A DNA stretch of 62,897 nucleotides, counting the filler, from Bigelowiella natans CCMP2755 (taxonomy: Eukaryota; Protista; Cercozoa), in NCBI GenBank assembly GCA_000320545.1. It is 7 parts of 7 records of this genome, joined end to end, with 100 filler letters (N's around TTAATTAATTAA, not from the genome) between each part and the next. Parts side by side here need not be neighbours in the genome. Positions count along the whole stretch, not along the records: positions 1 to 22,729 come from ADNK01000575.1; 6 more parts are not named here. One strand, given 5' to 3'. The notes beneath the pieces were generated by a model. The model made no database searches, was not told the origin of the DNA, and saw nothing but the letters and a program-made list of their open reading frames with translations. Positions 6,022-55,975 of the stretch are shown piece by piece. The position numbers and the translations under genes are program-made. Numbering within the stretch: position 1 is the stretch's first letter; each line of letters begins with the position of its first letter.

Positions 6022-7382
6022 CTGCGATACTCATTCAGTATGTGCGCCCCACATACATATACGTGTAAATAAACCCTTGGGAGAAAAGCGAAATTGATAA
6101 TAATAATTGTGTTAAAATGCTGGTGAGATGAGGTATGTCCTACTATAGACACAGGCCACATTTATGCGTTATATCTATTGTTCCTGCTAGAAATATGTCA
6201 TTAAATAAGATTTTATTCATCCCCCAGGCGATAAACTCTTGTCACAGCGAAATAAGCACGCTCTATACATTGAATTGCCAAATATCCAAGCAAATGTGTA
6301 TCATTTGCATGCGGAATGGGTGTTTCACACGCGTACATCTGGACATGCTCATTATTTGCAGCGCACATAACGATGCAACGATGCATTGTTGCACACAGCT
6401 TCATCAAATTGATGCATGTTGAGCTTTGGTCGCTAAAATCTACATGACAGCCTTGGGCGACGATGACGGGTTCCGCCAGCTCGGCCTTGTTAGCGCTTTA
6501 TCCACCCCGCACGCACAAGATCCAACATGAACTGTCATGAACGCAAACAGCTGTGTTAGTGAGCCATGGTCAAGCTGCTGTCCATGTCACCAACCATGCT
6601 AGCATGTCAGCCTCCAGATTGCGAATCCATTTTTTCACAGTCTGGAACTTGCTGCACTTCCAGACTTGCGCGTTCAAAAAATTCAAAATCGCCGATCCAT
6701 GCAACTGTTGCAGACATCACTGCAGCCATCATCATCACCACTGACCACAGCACACTGGCACATACAAGCACAGTGCGTGAACCAAACTCTAGAACTAGCA
6801 AATCCTTTGAAAGGGGGTCACAATGACTCCAATTCCATGCCAGCATTGTCATGGAAAACGTTTGCTAGTTTGGCACATTGGGATCGAGCAGAAGGGCCCA
6901 AAAATTTCCAAAAATGTCACGCCCAATGCATGTGGACAGAACACCATCACACAACGTGCACTGCGTGTCAAACAAAACAGCACATCATGACCCTTCGATT
7001 TGAGCCACATTGCAGCGCCACATGCCAGCATGCCAGCATGCTGGCATGGTCCGATTTGAATGAAAAGAATCTCCTCTGCAGGCTCTTTCTGGGGGGGATG
7101 GTTGGTAAATGTTCTGTCTAATTCATGGCGGAATGATCGGAAGGAATTCATGCATTGCAAAAACGTGCAATGGTGGCGAAAATTGGACAAAGTGAGCACT
7201 TTCCAGCATCTCCGGCCAACTTTGGCACACCTTGGCAATTTTTGAATTGCTTCTGCCATGCATCAGACTGAATGGATGGCATCCCCATGAAAGCCTTGCC
7301 GAGGCAGTTCTTTTCGACTGTGCAGCGAACAATCGAGACCACCGCACAGAAAATGCGGGGCATCAAAACGAGTGAACCAGTC

Positions 7383-7708
7383 TGTTGCGCGTAAGGTGTT
7401 CACAGGCCGAGGCGCTACGTGCACAAGTAGGCAGGGGGGGGGAAAGGCACGTTTGCTTCCTTTTGAAGAGTTGTGTTTATTTTTATTAAAGATTATATTT
7501 TTATTAAATCGTGCACTGCGTAATCATTCGCGAAGCTTTCGCGAATGCCGCCGCACGTGGGGCAGCACACTTCCGGTGTGCTGCCATGAGTCCCGCCGGA
7601 ACCCACGTGCCTATGCTGTATTAATATCTACGTTATCTATATTCTATATCCGCGACAACCCCTTTGTTGTCGCACGTGACTTGTGCCCGCGTAGTGGTAC
7701 GCGCTACA
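7383..7708 (-). repeat. 3' LTR (326 bp)
   Basis: Matches 12773-13098 base for base (offset 5390). Terminal inverted repeat TGTTGCGCGTA / TACGCGCTACA (10 of 11 match). Confidence 0.97.
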
Positions 7709-7716
7709 CCTCCCCC
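7709..7716 (-). promoter_or_regulatory. Polypurine tract (GGGGGAGG)
   Basis: Purine run directly abutting the 3' LTR on the coding strand. A further AAGG repeat lies just upstream. Confidence 0.8.
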
Positions 7717-7759
7717 AAGTCACGTTGCTCCTTCCTTCCTTCCTTATTCCCTTAGACCT

Positions 7760-10700
7760 TCATCGCTTTCGGAACTTCACCAACCACCAGGTAATAGATT
7801 CCTCTCTAACCTTATCTCCTTTGTCGCTTACCCAGAACTCACCTTCGTCCTTAGGTTCGTGTCCATACCAGCCCTCTGCATCAAGGTCCCCCAGGACCTT
7901 ATACCAGTGCTCAAAGGGTAAGTCGGGAACAGCTAGGTAGAGTAGCTGATATTTTCCGTCCTTTATTTTCATAGCTACCCTCTCCATATTTCGTAATCCA
8001 GGGTAGCCTAGATAGACAATCTTCATGCGCCAATCGTCGTTCACCCTGACCTTATTGTTTCCATATTCCACATCGAACTTAGGTCGGGGTCCTAAACAAG
8101 GCATTGCTCGCTCCCACACAGTAGGGTTTACTTTAACATCCTCTAGGAGCTTCTCACCGATATCATAATTCTTTAGGTGACTGATGTGGCGCAAGGTGAC
8201 CCTGTTCCCATCATAGATGTAGTACTGCTTCCTCCCCTTCCTCTCGGTAACCTTTGCAACGCCACCCCAGAAGGGGTCTTGTTTATTTCTCGATCTCAGA
8301 TTTACCTTGGCCCTAACATACTGTCCTTCCTTTAGAACTCGGCCATCGTACGGGACCTTCTCGTCTTCGCTCTCGGTATCGTCGTCGTTGTCGTCGCCTT
8401 CTTCCCTCTCCTTATCCTTGATACCTCCCCCAGACGTGAAGGTGTCGTTTACTAACCCTTGTATCTTGTCTGGTGTGGTGCTATTTATCCTGCTTAGGTT
8501 GGCCAAGGTGCGGTGGAGTCGCTCTACCTTGGAGTTGGACTGGGCATAGTATACAGGTGAGGCATCAATATTAGGGTGTGGTAGCTGTAGAAGAGAGGTC
8601 TCATTATCCACATGTAACTTCTTTGGTATCTTGTTTATGCTAACTTCATCAGGGATAGCCTGGAGCTCAGACTCCCAGGTACGGTAGCAGTTAGTAAGCC
8701 TCTGCTTATATAAGCCTTTGTTCTTCTTAGCAACGTTGACCTTGATAATCTTTTTAACCCAGCACTTTCCAGTGGCCACATCAACGAAGGTAAGGTAGTG
8801 ATAGCCATCGTACTTATAAACATCAATTTGCACGATATCTAAGAAGTTCCTTGCTTTGATTTTCTTAGATGCACGGCTCTTGCTGGACTCCTTGGTGGCG
8901 ACGCCTGCCGCCTTCAAGCTGGAGCACCTGCAGCCACGCAGGTATGTCCTTATCTCTTTTAGCTTGTAGGGCCAGTAGTAATGGTAGAGTAGAGCAGTGA
9001 TATGGTTTTCTCCTACGTGTGCAGGTCCATGGGCGGTAAAGAGAAGGGCTCCCCTGGTCCGCCGTGGCACGTAGGTACGCCTAACATTATTAGTGTATAC
9101 ATATATCCTATCACTAAGTACCTCATGCTTGTGTTTGTATTTATCCAGGTGTTCTTGAAGGTGCTGGAGCTCCTCTGGCTCAGGCAGGAAGTCGCCGTCC
9201 TCGAAGGTAATCGCGTTAACCATAGGGGTGACCTGGGTAGGGACTTTCTTTTCGAACAGCCTGCTGAAATAGTCAGCAAGCTGCTTGTCTCCTGGTGCGT
9301 AGACCACTGTCCTCTTGTCCCTAAACTCTTCCGTGTCCGCCCTCATAGCTGCATACTCATCGTTAGGCGCTTCGAGCTTGCGGTCGATGCCTAGGAGGGG
9401 CTTGTGGTCAGTCATTAAGGTGAAGCTGGGCACCGACAGCAGGTAGTGTCTTAGTTTCCTCTGCGCCTCAGTCATGGCTTTATACTCTCCTTTTGTAGGG
9501 CTGTACTTGGCCTCAGCTGCTGTGCAGGCCCTGCCCCACACCCGTATGATCTGCTGGTCTTGGGTAAGTACAGCAGCCATACCTAGCTTAGACCAGTCTG
9601 TCCATAGGGTAGCTGGTCTAGTAGTGTCTAGCTTAGCATTCAATAGGGTGTTGCTGCATAACTTTATTAGGTTATCGAAGTGGGCATCAAGGCCAGCCTT
9701 GGCCCACACCTTAGCGAAGCTGAGGCCTACAGAGTTCTCCTTCCGGTAAGCAGTAGTAAAAGCAGCTGCAGTCCTAGCGTAGGTAGGGGAGAACCTACGT
9801 AGTATCCAAGCTGCAGTCTGCAAGAATGACTTTAACTCCTTTGCATTCTTAGGTTTAGGGGCTTGCTGTAGTGCTGCTACTTTCTCGGGGTTTGGGGTGA
9901 TGCGGCCTTGCTCCAGGTAATATCCACACCACTTGATTCTTGTAGCTAGGAATGTACACTTCTGCAGTCTAATAGTAAAACCGAAGTGTGCAAACCTAAT
10001 AAATATATTTTCCAGGAGGAAGATCTGAGCGACGACTGTGTTGGTACATATTATGTCATCATCCACATACACAAACACAAACACCCACAACACAGACGCC
10101 ATCCCATCATGTGTGTATGCCCTGTAGTTCTGACTACTGAACGCATCCCCTGATATGCTTAGGCCGTAAGGGAATACGACGAAGTGCCACTTCCTGTGCC
10201 TGCTGGAGAACGCGGTAATGGGGCGGGAGGTTTTGTGGATGGGTGTCTGCATGTATGATTCATTTTTATCTAGGGAAGAGTAGTATTTGTATCCTATGAC
10301 GTGTTCAATAACGTCATCTATCCTTGGTGTAGGTGTCTGGATCCTCTTTATTACTCGGTTGTGGCGGATGAAGTTGTGCGCCAGGCGGAAGAAAGGGTAA
10401 GTAGGTTTCTTAGCTAGCACATGTCTCACGTTCCATGGTGAGTTGCTTGGCTCTATCTTCCCTTCCTTTGCCCATTCATTGATCTGCCACTCTATCTTTT
10501 CCCAGTCCGCTTCCGGTCGCCTATGTTCTGGGTCATTGATGATGCACTCTTCGTATCCCTTCTTTAGCTCGATCTTTACTGGGGTAAGCTTGCTGGAGGG
10601 CTTCGTCGTCGGCTTGGTGATGTCAGAGTACTTCTCGTTTAATATTTTATTAATGTACTTTTTGCCTTTGTCGATATCCCAATCATCAGCTGGGGGGGTC

Positions 10701-12733
10701 TTGTCCAGTAGCTCCGTTATCTGTCGGATGGTCTTGCCGGGGTTCTTCTTCCGTAGCTCGGTAGGTGTAGGTAGCTTGTTGTCCGCTAGGTCCATAAACT
10801 CTAACGCATTAACGCTTGACTCAGAGGTCCACTCGTCAAGCCGTATCATGTTCTGGCTGATGGTCCTGCCTGACTTCTTTGGCAACTTAGCAAAGTATAT
10901 CTTGTGATTGTAGAATGATATGATCCCCCCTAATTTTTCTAGGGCATCCTGTCCGAGGAGTAGTTCCATGGATAAAGTCATGGCTACTCGGGTCTTGATT
11001 TGGGTCTCCGCGTCGCTGCCAGGTATCTGTAGCTTTAGCATTAGCTCACCGACGGTCTTCATGGAAGAGCTTCCGTCTGCTTGAGCATATTTACGTTCTT
11101 TCTTAGTCACTTGATCCAATAGTCCTAACCTTCTTACTGTGCTTAGGCTTATGAAGGACTTCGGCATGCTGCCACTATCCCAAAGGGCAGGTAGTTTCTT
11201 GTAGTCTCCGTAGCTGTCTTTAACTTTAACCTTGGTCATAGCAACTTTGATAGTCCTGTTAGCGTCTTCGTCATTAATGTTGCATACTCCTAAGTTCTTT
11301 ATGTCGTCTAGGGTCATGGGCTTGTCTTGGTCCTGCGTTGCTGGTACTGCTGTCTTCGTCGGCGCCTGCTTAAGGTGATCTAATATTCCGTTTATCTGCT
11401 GCTGTATAGCATTGATACTGTTCTGCTTTTTGTTCTTATATTTATTGTTCTTCCCGTTGTTGCTGCCTTGCCATTTGCTGTTGTTATATCCTTGTCCTCT
11501 GCCTTTCTTTCTCTTTAACTTCTCGTAGTGTTCGTTGAGCTGCCTGATCGTCATCCTGGGTCGTCCTTCTTTCCTGTCTCTGCAGTCTTTAGCGGTGTGT
11601 TTCCCTTTACGTGAGCAGTATCCGCAACGTCGGTTACCTTCCCTGTCCTTGTACCAGTCTCGCTGCGGCTTAATAGCGTTAATGTTTCCTATGCCAGGTA
11701 CCTTAGGGCTGGTAAACTTGCGGTCCTGCTCCTGCTCGCGTAGGGATATAGCCTGCACTGCTGCCTCCATCGTGGTGTAGCCTTTCTCCGTAACGTAAGT
11801 GGATTCCTTTATCTTTAACTTGAACTCTTCAAACCTTGCCTGATCATCACCTGTGTTGTAATTAAAATCATGTAGTTCGTCGATCATATCCTGGAAGCGC
11901 GTGGCAAAGTCTCTAACAGGTTCTCTCTCATGCTGCATCATTGCTCTGTATTTTCTAATAGCCTGGGGTAGGGAGTTAGCATCCTGTTCATTTACAAAAG
12001 CCTTCATTATCGCCTCAACGTCTCGTAGCCCACTAACTGTAGTGTGTATTTTCTCTAGCTGCCTGATCCGGGTCCTGCCTGTCTCGTAAAGGTCCATGGC
12101 TTGCTTTATTATAGCTAGCCATTTGAGCTTGTCGTTTTCGGTGGGGTTAGGGGTAAAGTCGCAGAGTATACTCCTAGCGTTCTTCCACCACCTCCTTGCC
12201 TCACCTCTTTTCCCGTTGTATTTCGTTATCATAACCGGTGCTGTTTTAACAGACATGAACTGGGTGTTCCGCTGTACCGGCTGCTGCTGCTTGACGGTGC
12301 TCTGGGTCGTCCCCCGCGAGGCGCCCAGACCCCCGTCGTTCCTAAACAAAGCTGCCCACTCTGGAGGTAAGTCTGCTTCGTAATCCATGATGTCCTGCAT
12401 GATAGCTGCCCAAACATCATGTGTCTGATACTTGTATTCTATCGATACTTTCAGTTTGGCGTAGTTGCTCGCCCTGGGTCGCAAGGCTCGTAATGCCATT
12501 ACGACCTTCTTGCTTTCGGCGGCCACGTCCTCGTCGTCCGCCTCGTAGAAGTTCTCCAGTGCCTCTGCTGCTGCATCTGCTTTCTTAATCCCGGGTGCTG
12601 GTCCCGGCGGTGCCTGTGGAGGTGTTCCTCCTCCTTCCTTAGCGTCCGTATCGCCCTTCCTTTCCTGTTTCTGCTCGTGCCCTTGCACGGCCTGCGAGCC
12701 AAAGTCCTGCTGTTCTTCTAGCTGCTGTGACAT
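7760..12733 (-). CDS. Gag-Pol polyprotein, 1657 aa (gag zinc knuckle, aspartic protease, RT, RNase H, integrase, C-terminal extra domain)
   Basis: Motifs: CGYCSRKGKHTAKDC; LWDSGS; YVDD; RNase H TDWS, GEYKAM, TDHKPL and ADYFSR; integrase AHGPAH..CRC, IVQID, HVDNE and SKVERLHRTL; GPY/F-like PFWGG..RHISHLKNY. No stops or frameshifts. Confidence 0.96.
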   Translation of the reverse strand: MSQQLEEQQDFGSQAVQGHEQKQERKGDTDAKEGGGTPPQAPPGPAPGIKKADAAAEALENFYEADDEDVAAESKKVVMALRALRPRASNYAKLKVSIEYKYQTHDVWAAIMQDIMDYEADLPPEWAALFRNDGGLGASRGTTQSTVKQQQPVQRNTQFMSVKTAPVMITKYNGKRGEARRWWKNARSILCDFTPNPTENDKLKWLAIIKQAMDLYETGRTRIRQLEKIHTTVSGLRDVEAIMKAFVNEQDANSLPQAIRKYRAMMQHEREPVRDFATRFQDMIDELHDFNYNTGDDQARFEEFKLKIKESTYVTEKGYTTMEAAVQAISLREQEQDRKFTSPKVPGIGNINAIKPQRDWYKDREGNRRCGYCSRKGKHTAKDCRDRKEGRPRMTIRQLNEHYEKLKRKKGRGQGYNNSKWQGSNNGKNNKYKNKKQNSINAIQQQINGILDHLKQAPTKTAVPATQDQDKPMTLDDIKNLGVCNINDEDANRTIKVAMTKVKVKDSYGDYKKLPALWDSGSMPKSFISLSTVRRLGLLDQVTKKERKYAQADGSSSMKTVGELMLKLQIPGSDAETQIKTRVAMTLSMELLLGQDALEKLGGIISFYNHKIYFAKLPKKSGRTISQNMIRLDEWTSESSVNALEFMDLADNKLPTPTELRKKNPGKTIRQITELLDKTPPADDWDIDKGKKYINKILNEKYSDITKPTTKPSSKLTPVKIELKKGYEECIINDPEHRRPEADWEKIEWQINEWAKEGKIEPSNSPWNVRHVLAKKPTYPFFRLAHNFIRHNRVIKRIQTPTPRIDDVIEHVIGYKYYSSLDKNESYMQTPIHKTSRPITAFSSRHRKWHFVVFPYGLSISGDAFSSQNYRAYTHDGMASVLWVFVFVYVDDDIICTNTVVAQIFLLENIFIRFAHFGFTIRLQKCTFLATRIKWCGYYLEQGRITPNPEKVAALQQAPKPKNAKELKSFLQTAAWILRRFSPTYARTAAAFTTAYRKENSVGLSFAKVWAKAGLDAHFDNLIKLCSNTLLNAKLDTTRPATLWTDWSKLGMAAVLTQDQQIIRVWGRACTAAEAKYSPTKGEYKAMTEAQRKLRHYLLSVPSFTLMTDHKPLLGIDRKLEAPNDEYAAMRADTEEFRDKRTVVYAPGDKQLADYFSRLFEKKVPTQVTPMVNAITFEDGDFLPEPEELQHLQEHLDKYKHKHEVLSDRIYVYTNNVRRTYVPRRTRGALLFTAHGPAHVGENHITALLYHYYWPYKLKEIRTYLRGCRCSSLKAAGVATKESSKSRASKKIKARNFLDIVQIDVYKYDGYHYLTFVDVATGKCWVKKIIKVNVAKKNKGLYKQRLTNCYRTWESELQAIPDEVSINKIPKKLHVDNETSLLQLPHPNIDASPVYYAQSNSKVERLHRTLANLSRINSTTPDKIQGLVNDTFTSGGGIKDKEREEGDDNDDDTESEDEKVPYDGRVLKEGQYVRAKVNLRSRNKQDPFWGGVAKVTERKGRKQYYIYDGNRVTLRHISHLKNYDIGEKLLEDVKVNPTVWERAMPCLGPRPKFDVEYGNNKVRVNDDWRMKIVYLGYPGLRNMERVAMKIKDGKYQLLYLAVPDLPFEHWYKVLGDLDAEGWYGHEPKDEGEFWVSDKGDKVREESITWWLVKFRKR

Positions 12734-12749
12734 TGTTAGTCAAATCGTT

Positions 12750-12767
12750 TCCCGTGTGTGGAAGCCA
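12750..12767 (-). promoter_or_regulatory. Candidate primer-binding site (TGGCTTCCACACACGGGA)
   Basis: Begins with TGG 5 nt after the 5' LTR. Its complement ...CCCGTGTGTGGAAGCCA looks like a tRNA 3' end. The cognate tRNA is not identified. Confidence 0.6.
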
Positions 12768-12772
12768 AAGGT

Positions 12773-13098
12773 TGTTGCGCGTAAGGTGTTCACAGGCCGA
12801 GGCGCTACGTGCACAAGTAGGCAGGGGGGGGGAAAGGCACGTTTGCTTCCTTTTGAAGAGTTGTGTTTATTTTTATTAAAGATTATATTTTTATTAAATC
12901 GTGCACTGCGTAATCATTCGCGAAGCTTTCGCGAATGCCGCCGCACGTGGGGCAGCACACTTCCGGTGTGCTGCCATGAGTCCCGCCGGAACCCACGTGC
13001 CTATGCTGTATTAATATCTACGTTATCTATATTCTATATCCGCGACAACCCCTTTGTTGTCGCACGTGACTTGTGCCCGCGTAGTGGTACGCGCTACA
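12773..13098 (-). repeat. 5' LTR (326 bp)
   Basis: Identical to 7383-7708 and followed by the TSD AGTC. Confidence 0.97.
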
Positions 13099-13776
13099 AG
13101 TCTAGCAGTGAAATGATTCCCACTGAAAGTGTTGCGGGTGAATGAATGAGTGCATGAAGCGATCAAATCCAAATGCACAGCTGAAAGCATCATGGGTGTG
13201 CTGACTCATCCACTCCACAACCCTCCTCAATCAGAAAGACAGAAAGAAAGAAGTGTTTCCTGTTCCATGGACAATGGAGCAGGATCACGGGAACCACAAA
13301 ATTGTTGTTCACGATTCGCAAACGCCCTACATTTTCCATCTACAACAATTCCAAACACACGTCGCAGGATCAAATAACTGCAACGTTCGTCCCTTCCAAA
13401 AAGAAGCGTTCGAGGATCTTACGAGTAGCAATCGTTCCTCCGAAACTGCTGCGATCTCCCCGAAAAGGGCAAAAAACAGATTGAGCGTCTTGAAAGGATG
13501 TCGCAGGAACAAAAGGCAAGCCAATTTACCTACAGCCGTGCTCTCCGTTCGCTGATCGAACTCGTTGCTTTCCCGACCGAACATCACAATGGAACACGTT
13601 TTGACTTTGATGTAGCAAGGAGGCCCCCCCCTCCTGAACCAACGTGTACAAGACAGGACCAACATCATCCAGCAATTGACTCATCATTCAGATATATCTC
13701 ATCTTCCTCCTGGAACAAAAATCGGAATTTCGCAATTGTGACCTTTGAAATCGTAAGCTCTTTCTTCCGCTTGGCT

Positions 13777-14568
13777 ATGGCGAGCTTTCAGTCAGTTAAC
13801 CAGCACATCAATGGAAAAAAAAGGAGAAGAGCGTTCAATTCCAAAGATAAAAGAATCAAGCTGAGCGACTCTTCCTATCCATGCGGTATCAACAGCGGTC
13901 TGATGCGACACGGGAGTAGTCTCGTGACATCGCATCTACGATCGATCACACGTTTCTGCCCACTCACATCAGGGTCCACTATCAGCATTTTCGGTGTTAG
14001 GAAAAAAAATCAGCGCAAAAATACGGTAGCTTGTGATGAAGACGAGAAACAGGAAAAACCGTTGGTGAAAGCAGAGCCGAGATCTCATGAAGCGCCCGAT
14101 CACACCAAGCAGGTTTACGCTACCCCCCCAGGGAAGGACTTCAAAAAGACAAGGACTACACAAATTAAGAAAGTTATATTAAATATCAATTCTAAATTTT
14201 CCAAGATGAAAGCGAAGTCCAGCACCAAAACCTGCTCCAAAATGAGAAAAAAGTCAGAAAAGCGAAAATATGACAAGCTCCCTGAAGGCCACCATTACGT
14301 CAGAAGCATAAAAGGTAAAGTGTGAACCTCAAAATACTTGTTCAGCCATTTGGAGATTGAGAGAATTTATTTTTTGGGTTTATTTTGGTTTATTCTAGGC
14401 CATTTCCTCACAGATGAAGGTATATTTTTCCGTGTTCAATGGTGGGAGGGAGACGTTACCGAAGAGCCTTTGAGCTCGGTTATTCATATGCTTCCAACAC
14501 ATTATGCCAAAGAATGGGAGAAGCTTCAACAATCTGTACCTTCTTGGGTTCTTTCAATGTGCACTTAG
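13777..14568 (+). CDS. Basic low-complexity protein with a C-terminal chromodomain-like fold
   Basis: An 84-nt GT-AG intron (14315-14398) joins ORFs 13498..14325 and 14338..14568, giving HYVRSIKGHFLTDEGIFFRVQWWEGDVTEEPLSSV. This matches the chromodomain pattern Y.V..I..H......Y/F.V.W.....TWEP. The start codon is uncertain (13498 or 13777). Confidence 0.6.
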
Positions 14569-54784: not shown

Positions 54785-55975
54785 TCATTTGAGATTTTTG
54801 TATGAAGATTTCATGTCCCCGTGGGAACTCGTTACTCCACTACGGGTAGAGGGTCTTGTTGACGCTCGGCTACGAGTGGATCCCCGTTTTTGCCTCAGAG
54901 CCTTCGCGGCTGCTTTCTTTTTCCTCTGCTCCTTTCTCTTCTGCACGATTTGTTTGTATAGGGTTTTGCGATATTCACTAATTGAGAATCTAACGTTATC
55001 GTCAATTGATATCTTTATGGGTTTCGACATTGTAATTTCTTCGTCCGTGTTGCTAAACTGCTTTAAGTATGGGTGTTTAAGGGCTTCTGTGGACGTGATT
55101 CGTTTTTCGGGATTGAACTGAAGTAGTTTTCCTAAGAGATCTAATGCGTCGGTCGATGCGTTTGGGTACAAAGAACGAAGTGTTTTCCTCTCTTTGACGC
55201 TAATGTTCTCGAGCATGCTGGAAGTGTAGCGCGACCTTATCGCCGCCATATCCTCCTTGCTCGGAAATCCCGTGACAGCAATAACCTTTTCTAGCTGGTT
55301 GATTGTCGAGTCTCCAGGAAACATCGGATTCCCCCCAACGAGTTCTCCCAAAATGCATCCTATGGACCACATGTCGACCGACTTGCTGTACTTCGTCGAG
55401 CCAAGTAGGATTTCTGGCGCTCTATACCATCGGGTCGCAACGTAATCGGTGAGGACAACATTGGTGTTGTCTACGTCTAAGTTCTCGCAAGACCGCGCAA
55501 GGCCAAAATCGATAAGTTTGCAGTGACAGTCAGAATTCAAGAGAACGTTACTAGGCTTCATATCTCGATGGATCAGCTCTCCAGAGTGTAAAAACTTAAG
55601 AGCCTTAATTATTTGATAAAGGATATACTTCTTGTGCACCTGCTCAAGGATATTTGCTCGGATAACCGCATGGAGATTTATTTCCATGTACTCAAAGACC
55701 AAATAAATATCTCTGTCATTATCAGCTTTCAGAACGTTGAGGAGCCGAATGATATTTGGATGAGAAGTCATGTTAAGTTCTTGCAAGAACATGATCTCTC
55801 GGAAAGTTCTTTGCGCATCAGTAGAGTTTTGGAATGCATCGAAGATCTTCTTCAAAGCCACTGTGCGTCGTGTCTTACGATCAGTTGCTTTCCACACAAT
55901 ACCGTAAGCTCCCTTCCCAACTCGCTTACCCACTTCGTACTTCCGAAGGATATGTTTATCGATTTCCTCGCTCAT
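54785..55975 (-). CDS. MAPK15: MAP kinase of the ERK7/ERK8 (MAPK15) type, intronless CDS, 396 aa
   Basis: MSEEIDKHILRKY, GKGAYGIVWKA, KKIFDAFQNSTDAQRTFREIMFLQE, HRDMKPSN, DFG and TDYVATRWYRAPE. Confidence 0.95.
   Translation of the reverse strand: MSEEIDKHILRKYEVGKRVGKGAYGIVWKATDRKTRRTVALKKIFDAFQNSTDAQRTFREIMFLQELNMTSHPNIIRLLNVLKADNDRDIYLVFEYMEINLHAVIRANILEQVHKKYILYQIIKALKFLHSGELIHRDMKPSNVLLNSDCHCKLIDFGLARSCENLDVDNTNVVLTDYVATRWYRAPEILLGSTKYSKSVDMWSIGCILGELVGGNPMFPGDSTINQLEKVIAVTGFPSKEDMAAIRSRYTSSMLENISVKERKTLRSLYPNASTDALDLLGKLLQFNPEKRITSTEALKHPYLKQFSNTDEEITMSKPIKISIDDNVRFSISEYRKTLYKQIVQKRKEQRKKKAAAKALRQKRGSTRSRASTRPSTRSGVTSSHGDMKSSYKNLK

Follow-up and report, generated by a model that had tools for sequence, protein, structure and literature searches.

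A predicted adenine-methyltransferase fold without its catalytic motif at the C terminus of a Ty3/gypsy polyprotein from Bigelowiella natans

An intact Ty3/gypsy retrotransposon of Bigelowiella natans encodes a polyprotein that ends in a 134-amino-acid domain with a predicted N6-adenine methyltransferase fold of the Dam/PCIF1 type. Comparison of related sequences indicates that this tail domain is retained across a deep clade even though its catalytic motif is gone. The reading favored here, to which we give about an even chance, is that the tail is a retained but catalytically dead methyltransferase fold serving as an integrase tether. Dam domains in gypsy elements are already known, and the novelty lies in the motif-less variant and not in a new system. 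The family is a new lineage of Dam-bearing LTR elements that is invisible to Pfam-based screens, and it bears on the question of whether the Dam domains of retrotransposons have any enzymatic function; should the tail indeed be a tether, it would be a new integrase targeting module.

The element and its polyprotein

The window (the whole stretch of DNA that was analyzed, 62,897 nucleotides) contains the element with its ORF on the minus strand, a 4-bp target duplication, and two identical LTRs of 326 nt each. The features, in window positions, are as follows.

6501..7382, no strand, TpA-depleted and TpG/CpA-enriched flank in which the element is inserted, likely an older hypermutated repeat
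7379..7382 (left) and 13099-13102 (right), no strand, target-site duplication AGTC, 4 bp
7383..7708, minus strand, 3' LTR, 326 nt, with TG...CA ends and the same sequence as the 5' LTR
7709..7719, minus strand, polypurine tract adjoining the 3' LTR, recognized from sequence
7760..12733, minus strand, gag-pol ORF, single and uninterrupted, 1657 aa
7763..8164, minus strand, C-terminal 134-aa domain (aa 1524-1657), predicted minimal Dam/PCIF1-type N6-adenine methyltransferase fold without the catalytic motif
7997..8008, minus strand, GYPG, in the motif IV (NPPY) register
8165..8347, minus strand, SH3/KOW-like integrase C-terminal module of the GPY/F type; some relatives retain WxGP
8429..8851, minus strand, DDE integrase core, with a spacing of 27-28 residues from the second D to E, family-wide
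8927..9070, minus strand, integrase zinc-binding domain (HH-CxC), Pfam PF17921, E 0.002, under the curated cut-off
9380..9682, minus strand, RNase H, Pfam PF17917/PF17919
9917..10342, minus strand, reverse transcriptase (YVDD), Pfam PF00078
10937..11197, minus strand, aspartyl protease, Pfam PF13975, E 0.002, under the curated cut-off
12750..12767, minus strand, primer-binding-site-like stretch (TGG...), 5 nt inside the 5' LTR, recognized from sequence
12773..13098, minus strand, 5' LTR, 326 nt

The direct LTRs with TG...CA ends and the short target-site duplication are those of a Ty3/gypsy element, as is the domain order gag-PR-RT-RH-IN, which was read from Pfam matches and, for the integrase, from DDE residues that are present at a shortened spacing. 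Because the LTRs are identical and the AGTC duplication, polypurine tract, and primer-binding-site-like stretch are all present, the insertion is young, and the element is an intact retrotransposon that was inserted recently. Among 79 candidate matches, 8 are gene models of the JGI Bigna1 set that are 99-100% identical to the element protein; given these near-identical B. natans models, the family is multi-copy.

The integrase departs from the usual design, in which the second D and the E lie about 35 residues apart and the zinc motif is CxxC. In this clade it is reduced, with a D-E spacing of 27-28 in 16 of the 17 proteins examined, plus a CxC zinc motif. The DDE core had no rve hit in the Pfam search and gave weak matches to the PFV and Ty3 integrases, and the SH3/KOW-like module gave a weak match to eL21. 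TAL-repeat entries in the PDB sequence search were discarded as an artefact of summed weak matches to one integrase helix.

The tail stands directly after the SH3/KOW-like GPY/F-type module, and the peptide quoted for it in the earlier note is indeed the C terminus of the minus-strand ORF (7760-12733). Its length of 134 aa (residues 1524-1657) had also been given correctly, but these residues correspond to 7763-8164, whereas the interval previously assigned to them, 7763-8140, encodes 126 aa (residues 1532-1657).

RNA contigs from two marine metatranscriptome studies display many joints across the element. Among the 15 joints listed of 23, 14 are GT..AG and one is GC..AG, all on the plus strand and antisense to gag-pol; six joints are common to both RNA studies, and none occurs in two DNA runs. 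A second alignment, over 7300-10000, contains 13 joints, 12 of them GT..AG, and the alignment of contig L123 breaks into 14 blocks separated by matching gaps. The RNA over the element appears to be spliced antisense RNA, its direction being read from the splice signals since the contigs are unstranded. Along the antisense exon chain over 7709-8794, the longest stop-free stretch is 114 codons. Three transcriptome-derived ORFs considered as evidence of tail expression (P0069, P0085, and P0087) were rejected, as their junctions coincide with the antisense introns.

Predicted fold and catalytic motif of the tail

A phmmer search of 1.84 billion representatives with the 134-aa tail retrieved 47 matches at an E value of ≤1e-3, namely, 38 distant relatives at 29-41% identity and 9 nearer copies at 67-100%. 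These relatives are drawn from metagenomes, assemblies, and transcriptomes, and the long ones present the order RT-RH-IN-SH3-tail, with the tail as the last domain, joined to the SH3 module by a short fixed junction. A quick tree built from 50 RT-RNase H rows groups six tail-bearing rows and one C-terminally truncated row into a clade of seven with a long stem and an SH-aLRT of 100; for this tree, 13 near-duplicate or degenerate rows were skipped and rows outside 230-520 aa were excluded. Among the proteins first retrieved in a further search with 65 hits, the tail HMM matched only P0083, a host copy; none of the outgroup gypsy proteins scored, and PF05869 was listed for 0 of the 65 hits. Family loci were absent from the viral and prokaryotic collections searched, and metagenome contigs contained one family locus only.

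Of the folded domains in the polyprotein, the tail is the most divergent. Its mean pairwise identity is 28%, whereas the others reach 38-47% and the linkers 20-28%, which makes it no more conserved than one inter-domain linker. It contains one invariant Pro and several near-invariant Trp, and its conserved positions are mostly Trp, Pro, and Gly.

The AF2 model calculated from a 46-sequence alignment shows a five-strand core, with a pLDDT of 94.3 and a pTM of 0.88; a model from the single sequence (pLDDT of 33.8) was set aside. Foldseek against BFVD, which holds predicted viral structures, returned eight hits at an E value of ≤1e-3 (best, 9e-6; TMq, 0.60-0.65). The five named hits are all methyltransferases, four of them named N6-adenine methyltransferases, and viral PCIF1-like proteins come next. 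Against the PDB, Foldseek returned nothing at an E value of ≤1e-3, and the first match was PCIF1/CAPAM (6irx; E 0.018, prob 0.98). PCIF1 was also first in VIA-align against the PDB (Z 6.7, rmsd 3.3, 111 aligned), at the head of a list made up mostly of SAM-dependent methyltransferases; 0 of the 48,161 chains reached a Z of ≥8, and a Z of <8 falls in the range that the tool calls common. The structural matches share 5-15% identity with the tail, and PCIF1 shares 8-10%. No chromodomain was detected in the tail by Pfam (query and relatives) or by fold (PDB and BFVD). A better match to a chromodomain or another known integrase C-terminal domain, which by the earlier note would have refuted the fold call, was absent from the Pfam results.

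At the sequence level, the tail query matched nothing in Pfam at an E value of ≤1, PF05869 included, and searches of Pfam, PHROGs, and PDB sequences gave no significant methyltransferase match, so that the HMM search against Pfam and the PDB proposed earlier as a check did not return one. Among 40 relatives, one (P0029) matched PF05869 with an E value of 0.032 and 14.4 bits, compared with a curated cut-off of 28.1, and in a tblastn search of P0029 against phage the lowest E values (0.2-0.7) belonged to Dam genes. The Atlas held no usable match for the query tail; it provided, as a lead only, a eukaryotic cluster in which PF05869 accounts for 75% (score 0.80). With the tail HMM, 9 of 115 phage Dam segments reached at least 8 bits, as did 2 of 1150 shuffled segments and none of the 115 reversed ones; the test is biased because the Dam set was picked by the VWCNPPY pattern. 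In the reverse test, the Dam HMM scored ≥5 bits on 0 of the 42 tail rows that were left after removing 4 near-duplicates, and hhalign of the tail and Dam profiles gave P values of 0.083 (local) and 0.16 (global), which are not significant alone. Weak as it is, the sequence evidence agrees in direction with the structural matches; homology of the tail to the Dam/PCIF1 group is very probable, and the Dam-like adenine-methyltransferase fold proposed in the earlier note is borne out by the predicted model and its Foldseek and VIA-align matches.

In amino-methyltransferases, motif IV opens with a residue that takes a hydrogen bond from the target amino group and closes with one that stacks on the base. 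The profile alignment sets V-W-L-G-Y-P-G of the tail on V-W-C-N-P-P-Y, with the next helix and the P..W segment colinear, and thereby supports placing GYPG at the position of NPPY. Motif IV is spanned by 38 of the 42 tail rows, and a canonical (D/N/S)PP(Y/F/W) is found in 0 of these 38; siblings with an intact NPPF or DPPY, which had been suggested as worth looking for, are thus absent among them. The forms observed in the 38 rows are GYPG (15 rows), GCPG (4), GFPG (3), SFPF (3), AYPG (2), GHPG (2), GRPG (2), SFPL (2), and five singletons, and those with C, H, or R may be products of TpA mutation in a Tyr codon. The wider motif correspondence drawn earlier recurs, in profile alignments that are not significant alone, for DW..VW, motif IV, the helix with its Lys, LYLAVP..W, and NP/TP, whereas the register of GPRPKFD and motif I is uncertain.

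The SAM-binding side had been called eroded, and the alignment points the same way. The SAM lobe has an Asp in 29 of 36 rows, though in an uncertain register, and no conserved DGL; from the motif I Asp to motif IV there are 22 residues in the tail and 34 in Dam, a segment approximately 12 residues shorter. The Dam arginines of PART (91 of 103) and GRL (103 of 113) are without counterpart in the tail, and the C-terminal half of the tail is net acidic on average. Without these two arginines, binding to plain DNA is less likely. With Gly in place of both the acceptor and the base-stacking aromatic, and with a shorter SAM lobe, methyl transfer appears to have been lost, and the tail is, judging from its motifs, probably catalytically inactive.

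Possible roles and host TpA hypermutation

In the tether reading, a Dam-type domain would have been captured once, anciently, by the ancestor of the clade. Methyl transfer would then have been lost and the fold kept as a binding module. By analogy with the chromodomains that fill this slot elsewhere, the tail may tether the integration complex to host chromatin, and the plain DNA backbone would be a less likely ligand than either a chromatin protein or a modified base. A local hint for tethering comes from one site (n=1), the TpA-poor flank of the insertion: a TpA rho of <0.4 is found in only 2 of the 119 500-nt bins of the window, and both are the left flank. The TpA rho of the right flank is low (0.46-0.53), and the element itself is not depleted. 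At odds with strict targeting to silent chromatin, RNA contigs of spliced antisense RNA run in from another host flank, so that at least one other copy is read through and some copies must lie in transcribed regions.

The tail could also have a purely internal structural role in the particle or intasome of the element, without any host ligand, for example making up for the reduced length of the integrase core. Such a role would accord with the fixed short junction after the SH3 module, with the reduced integrase of the same clade (D-E spacing and CxC), and with the predominance of Trp, Pro, and Gly among the conserved positions. It is nevertheless unlikely, as in this fold the conserved motif IV loop and Asp31 would lie in a surface pocket.

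Rather less likely is a tail that still works as a methyltransferase, of altered chemistry or substrate, and marks element cDNA or RNA; Asp31 would then still bind SAM, while Tyr/Phe54 and the conserved Trp residues would position a base or side chain. Several residues are conserved and not drifting, namely, Asp31 (29 of 36 rows), Asn36 (24 of 37), Tyr/Phe54 (28 of 38), Pro55 (36 of 38), and Gly53/Gly56, and a subclade with S-F-P-[FL] (5 of 38) has a polar first residue and sometimes an aromatic last one. Furthermore, the main text of the preprint on DAM-LTR retrotransposons proposes self-methylation of intermediates (10.64898/2026.05.21.726589). The main clade, however, is without acceptor side chain or stacking aromatic, the segment that bears the DGL motif in Dam is shortened, and even eukaryotic DAMs with an intact NPP are reported in that text to have no activity in E. 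coli (10.64898/2026.05.21.726589).

TpA-specific A>G hypermutation of viral insertions is described in B. natans, with transposons suggested as targets too, in a preprint whose main text leaves LTR or gypsy elements unmentioned (10.64898/2026.01.13.699255). The present family is a target of host TpA hypermutation. Substitutions relative to the window ORF that fit TpA>TpG/CpA make up 16 of 18 in P0013 and 31 of 45 in P0108, both degenerate copies. Tyr-free proteins, which are copies or relatives, comprise P0013, P0019, P0020, P0027, and P0108, plus three metagenomic relatives; by comparison, 0 of 51 other proteins from the search with 65 hits fall below 0.5% Tyr. The live copy has 141 TpA at codon junctions, compared with 112 expected (z 4.2), and is poor in CpG (z -6.2), whereas a host kinase ORF has neither the TpA excess nor the CpG deficit at codon junctions.

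A defense of this kind could be met by the tail itself, through masking of TpA adenines or binding of the host deaminase. The family is struck by hypermutation, as the substitutions in P0013 and P0108 and five Tyr-free proteins attest, the live copy is TpA-rich, and a fold with an adenine pocket would be a natural candidate. Yet these observations amount to co-occurrence, many copies have been erased regardless, and at 9448 the window copy departs, in the TpA direction, from three other data sets. Foreign genes are, moreover, TpA-rich in general according to the hypermutation preprint (10.64898/2026.01.13.699255), and counter-defense of this form is very unlikely. A neighboring proposal, in which a non-catalytic adenine-pocket reader engages the chlorarachniophyte TpA-deamination defense and either shields TpA-rich copies or steers the intasome into hypermutated silent DNA, is doubtful though somewhat less so; if true, such a reader would be the first case of a transposon countering an adenine-directed RIP-like system. 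Since the element is young and multi-copy and its host is a cultured alga with published TpA hypermutation, both targeting and counter-defense are directly testable.

Convergence of a small alpha/beta domain unrelated to Dam would agree with the lack of a significant sequence match, the 5-15% identity of the structural matches, and the VIA-align Z of <8, but it is extremely improbable, as BFVD, the PDB, the tblastn search of P0029, and the Atlas lead all point to one narrow family and the motif spacing after motif IV is colinear.

Relation to known systems

A dead methyltransferase fold used as an integrase tether would not make this element the undescribed system for which the earlier note held it the best candidate. 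Ty3/gypsy elements with DIRS-derived Dam domains, the DAM-LTR retrotransposons, have already been described by Fernandez-Moreno et al. (bioRxiv 10.64898/2026.05.21.726589). The main text of that preprint distinguishes five lineages (chlorophyte, chlorophyte-ochrophyte, ichthyosporean, Pyropia, and Euglena), whose domains conserve Asn-Pro-Pro and were found by HMM at an E value of ≤1e-5, and it reports 6mA enrichment in some hosts; Bigelowiella, chlorarachniophytes, Rhizaria, and Cercozoa are unmentioned there. That HMM cut-off would likely miss the B. natans family. Like the DAM-LTR elements as described in the main text, the present element is a Ty3/gypsy-like LTR element of a unicellular host with a Dam-type domain (by predicted fold only) of a five-stranded minimal fold. 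Unlike them, its family escapes the Pfam Dam model and is without the motif throughout, whereas DAM-LTR elements keep NPP. The element resembles a DAM-LTR in architecture but is not filed as a member, since it has neither the motif nor the HMM match by which that group is recognized.

The literature searched contained no description of this clade, and the supplements of both bioRxiv preprints may list B. natans elements. Nothing was found for the host on AMT1 or 6mA-enriched insertions, and the main text of PMC12695648 is without mention of the host. Further literature bears on the relation to known systems (PMC5890265, PMC6338049, and 10.1101/2025.03.17.643675).

The MT domains of DIRS elements are described as detectable by PF05869 (PMC3783388), and Iyer et al. 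describe the DIRS1 methyltransferase domains as PCIF1-related and likely inactive binders (PMC4738411). The tail shares with them a PCIF1-related predicted fold class and a position at the end of pol, and the DIRS domain, too, has been judged likely inactive. Compared by description, the tail differs in its setting: it comes after a DDE integrase and an SH3 module, and the element has LTRs, a target duplication, and no tyrosine recombinase. A scan of viral contigs for the DIRS-type MT pattern gave chance matches only.

The phage N6-adenine methyltransferases (PF05869 Dam) provide the best structural matches, with motifs that are colinear from W-x-x-x-VW onward. The tail departs from them in having GYPG for NPPY, 12 fewer residues between motifs I and IV, and no PART/GRL arginines. 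PCIF1/CAPAM (6irx), the first solved-structure match in both Foldseek and VIA-align, is an active RNA enzyme whose motif IV is NPPF; the tail, in contrast, is only 8-10% identical to it and has no WW or helical domain. Chromoviruses form a separate RT clade and carry the chromodomain that is absent from the tail by Pfam and by fold, but the slot after the GPY/F-SH3 module is identical, and it is by analogy with them that a targeting role is proposed for the tail.

Base composition and signs of TpA hypermutation

The live element (window 7709-12772) is TpA-rich, with CTA at 45 of 124 leucine codons and ATA at 40 of 90 isoleucine codons, and it is also CpG-poor. In both respects it differs from a host kinase ORF of the same window, which is neither TpA-rich nor CpG-poor and which we take to be MAPK-like.

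54785-55975, minus strand: intronless protein kinase ORF, 396 aa (Pfam E value, 3.6e-67), with a TDY activation motif

The flanks of the element (6501-7382 and 13099-14000) are TpA-depleted and TpG/CpA-rich; they are likely an old hypermutated repeat that was split by the insertion, and Pfam gave them no identity. Another stretch is chromodomain-like by eye (Y-V-R-S-I ... F-R-V-Q-W-W ... T-E-E-P-L); its second apparent exon, searched alone, gave no Pfam match.

14290-14568, plus strand: two apparent exons, chromodomain-like by eye

Degenerate copies free of tyrosine occur among the database proteins (P0013, P0019, P0020, P0027, and P0108, as well as the unnamed P0045, P0047, and P0052). These are consistent with the TpA-specific A>G process reported for B. 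natans (bioRxiv 10.64898/2026.01.13.699255) acting on the Ty3/gypsy LTR family of the element, possibly in other hosts too. At position 9448, in a TpA context, the window copy has G, the base being A in two DNA runs and in one RNA run. The G places histidine instead of tyrosine at residue 1096, in RNase H, and is possibly a first hit of host hypermutation.

Antisense spliced RNA

RNA contigs of two metatranscriptome studies, the aligned contig L123, and transcriptome ORFs revealed at least 20 short GT-AG introns antisense to gag-pol (7383-12860), with variable retention. One RNA contig enters from another host flank via the LTR. Donor-like words on the antisense strand show a modest excess over the codon-shuffle expectation (GGTA, z = 3.7), which may merely reflect the TpA excess.

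Reduced integrase and database relatives

The integrase (8429-9070) is reduced across the family, with a D-E spacing of 27 to 28, a CxC zinc motif, and a core that is short beyond the catalytic glutamate; this interval gave no Pfam match to rve. One family member, P0036, is assigned in the database to a Nitrospirales MAG, where it is called a hypothetical protein; it is likely a eukaryotic contaminant of the bin. P0100, a gypsy polyprotein unrelated to this family, is of a kind already known and includes a PF00145 domain (C5 cytosine methyltransferase).
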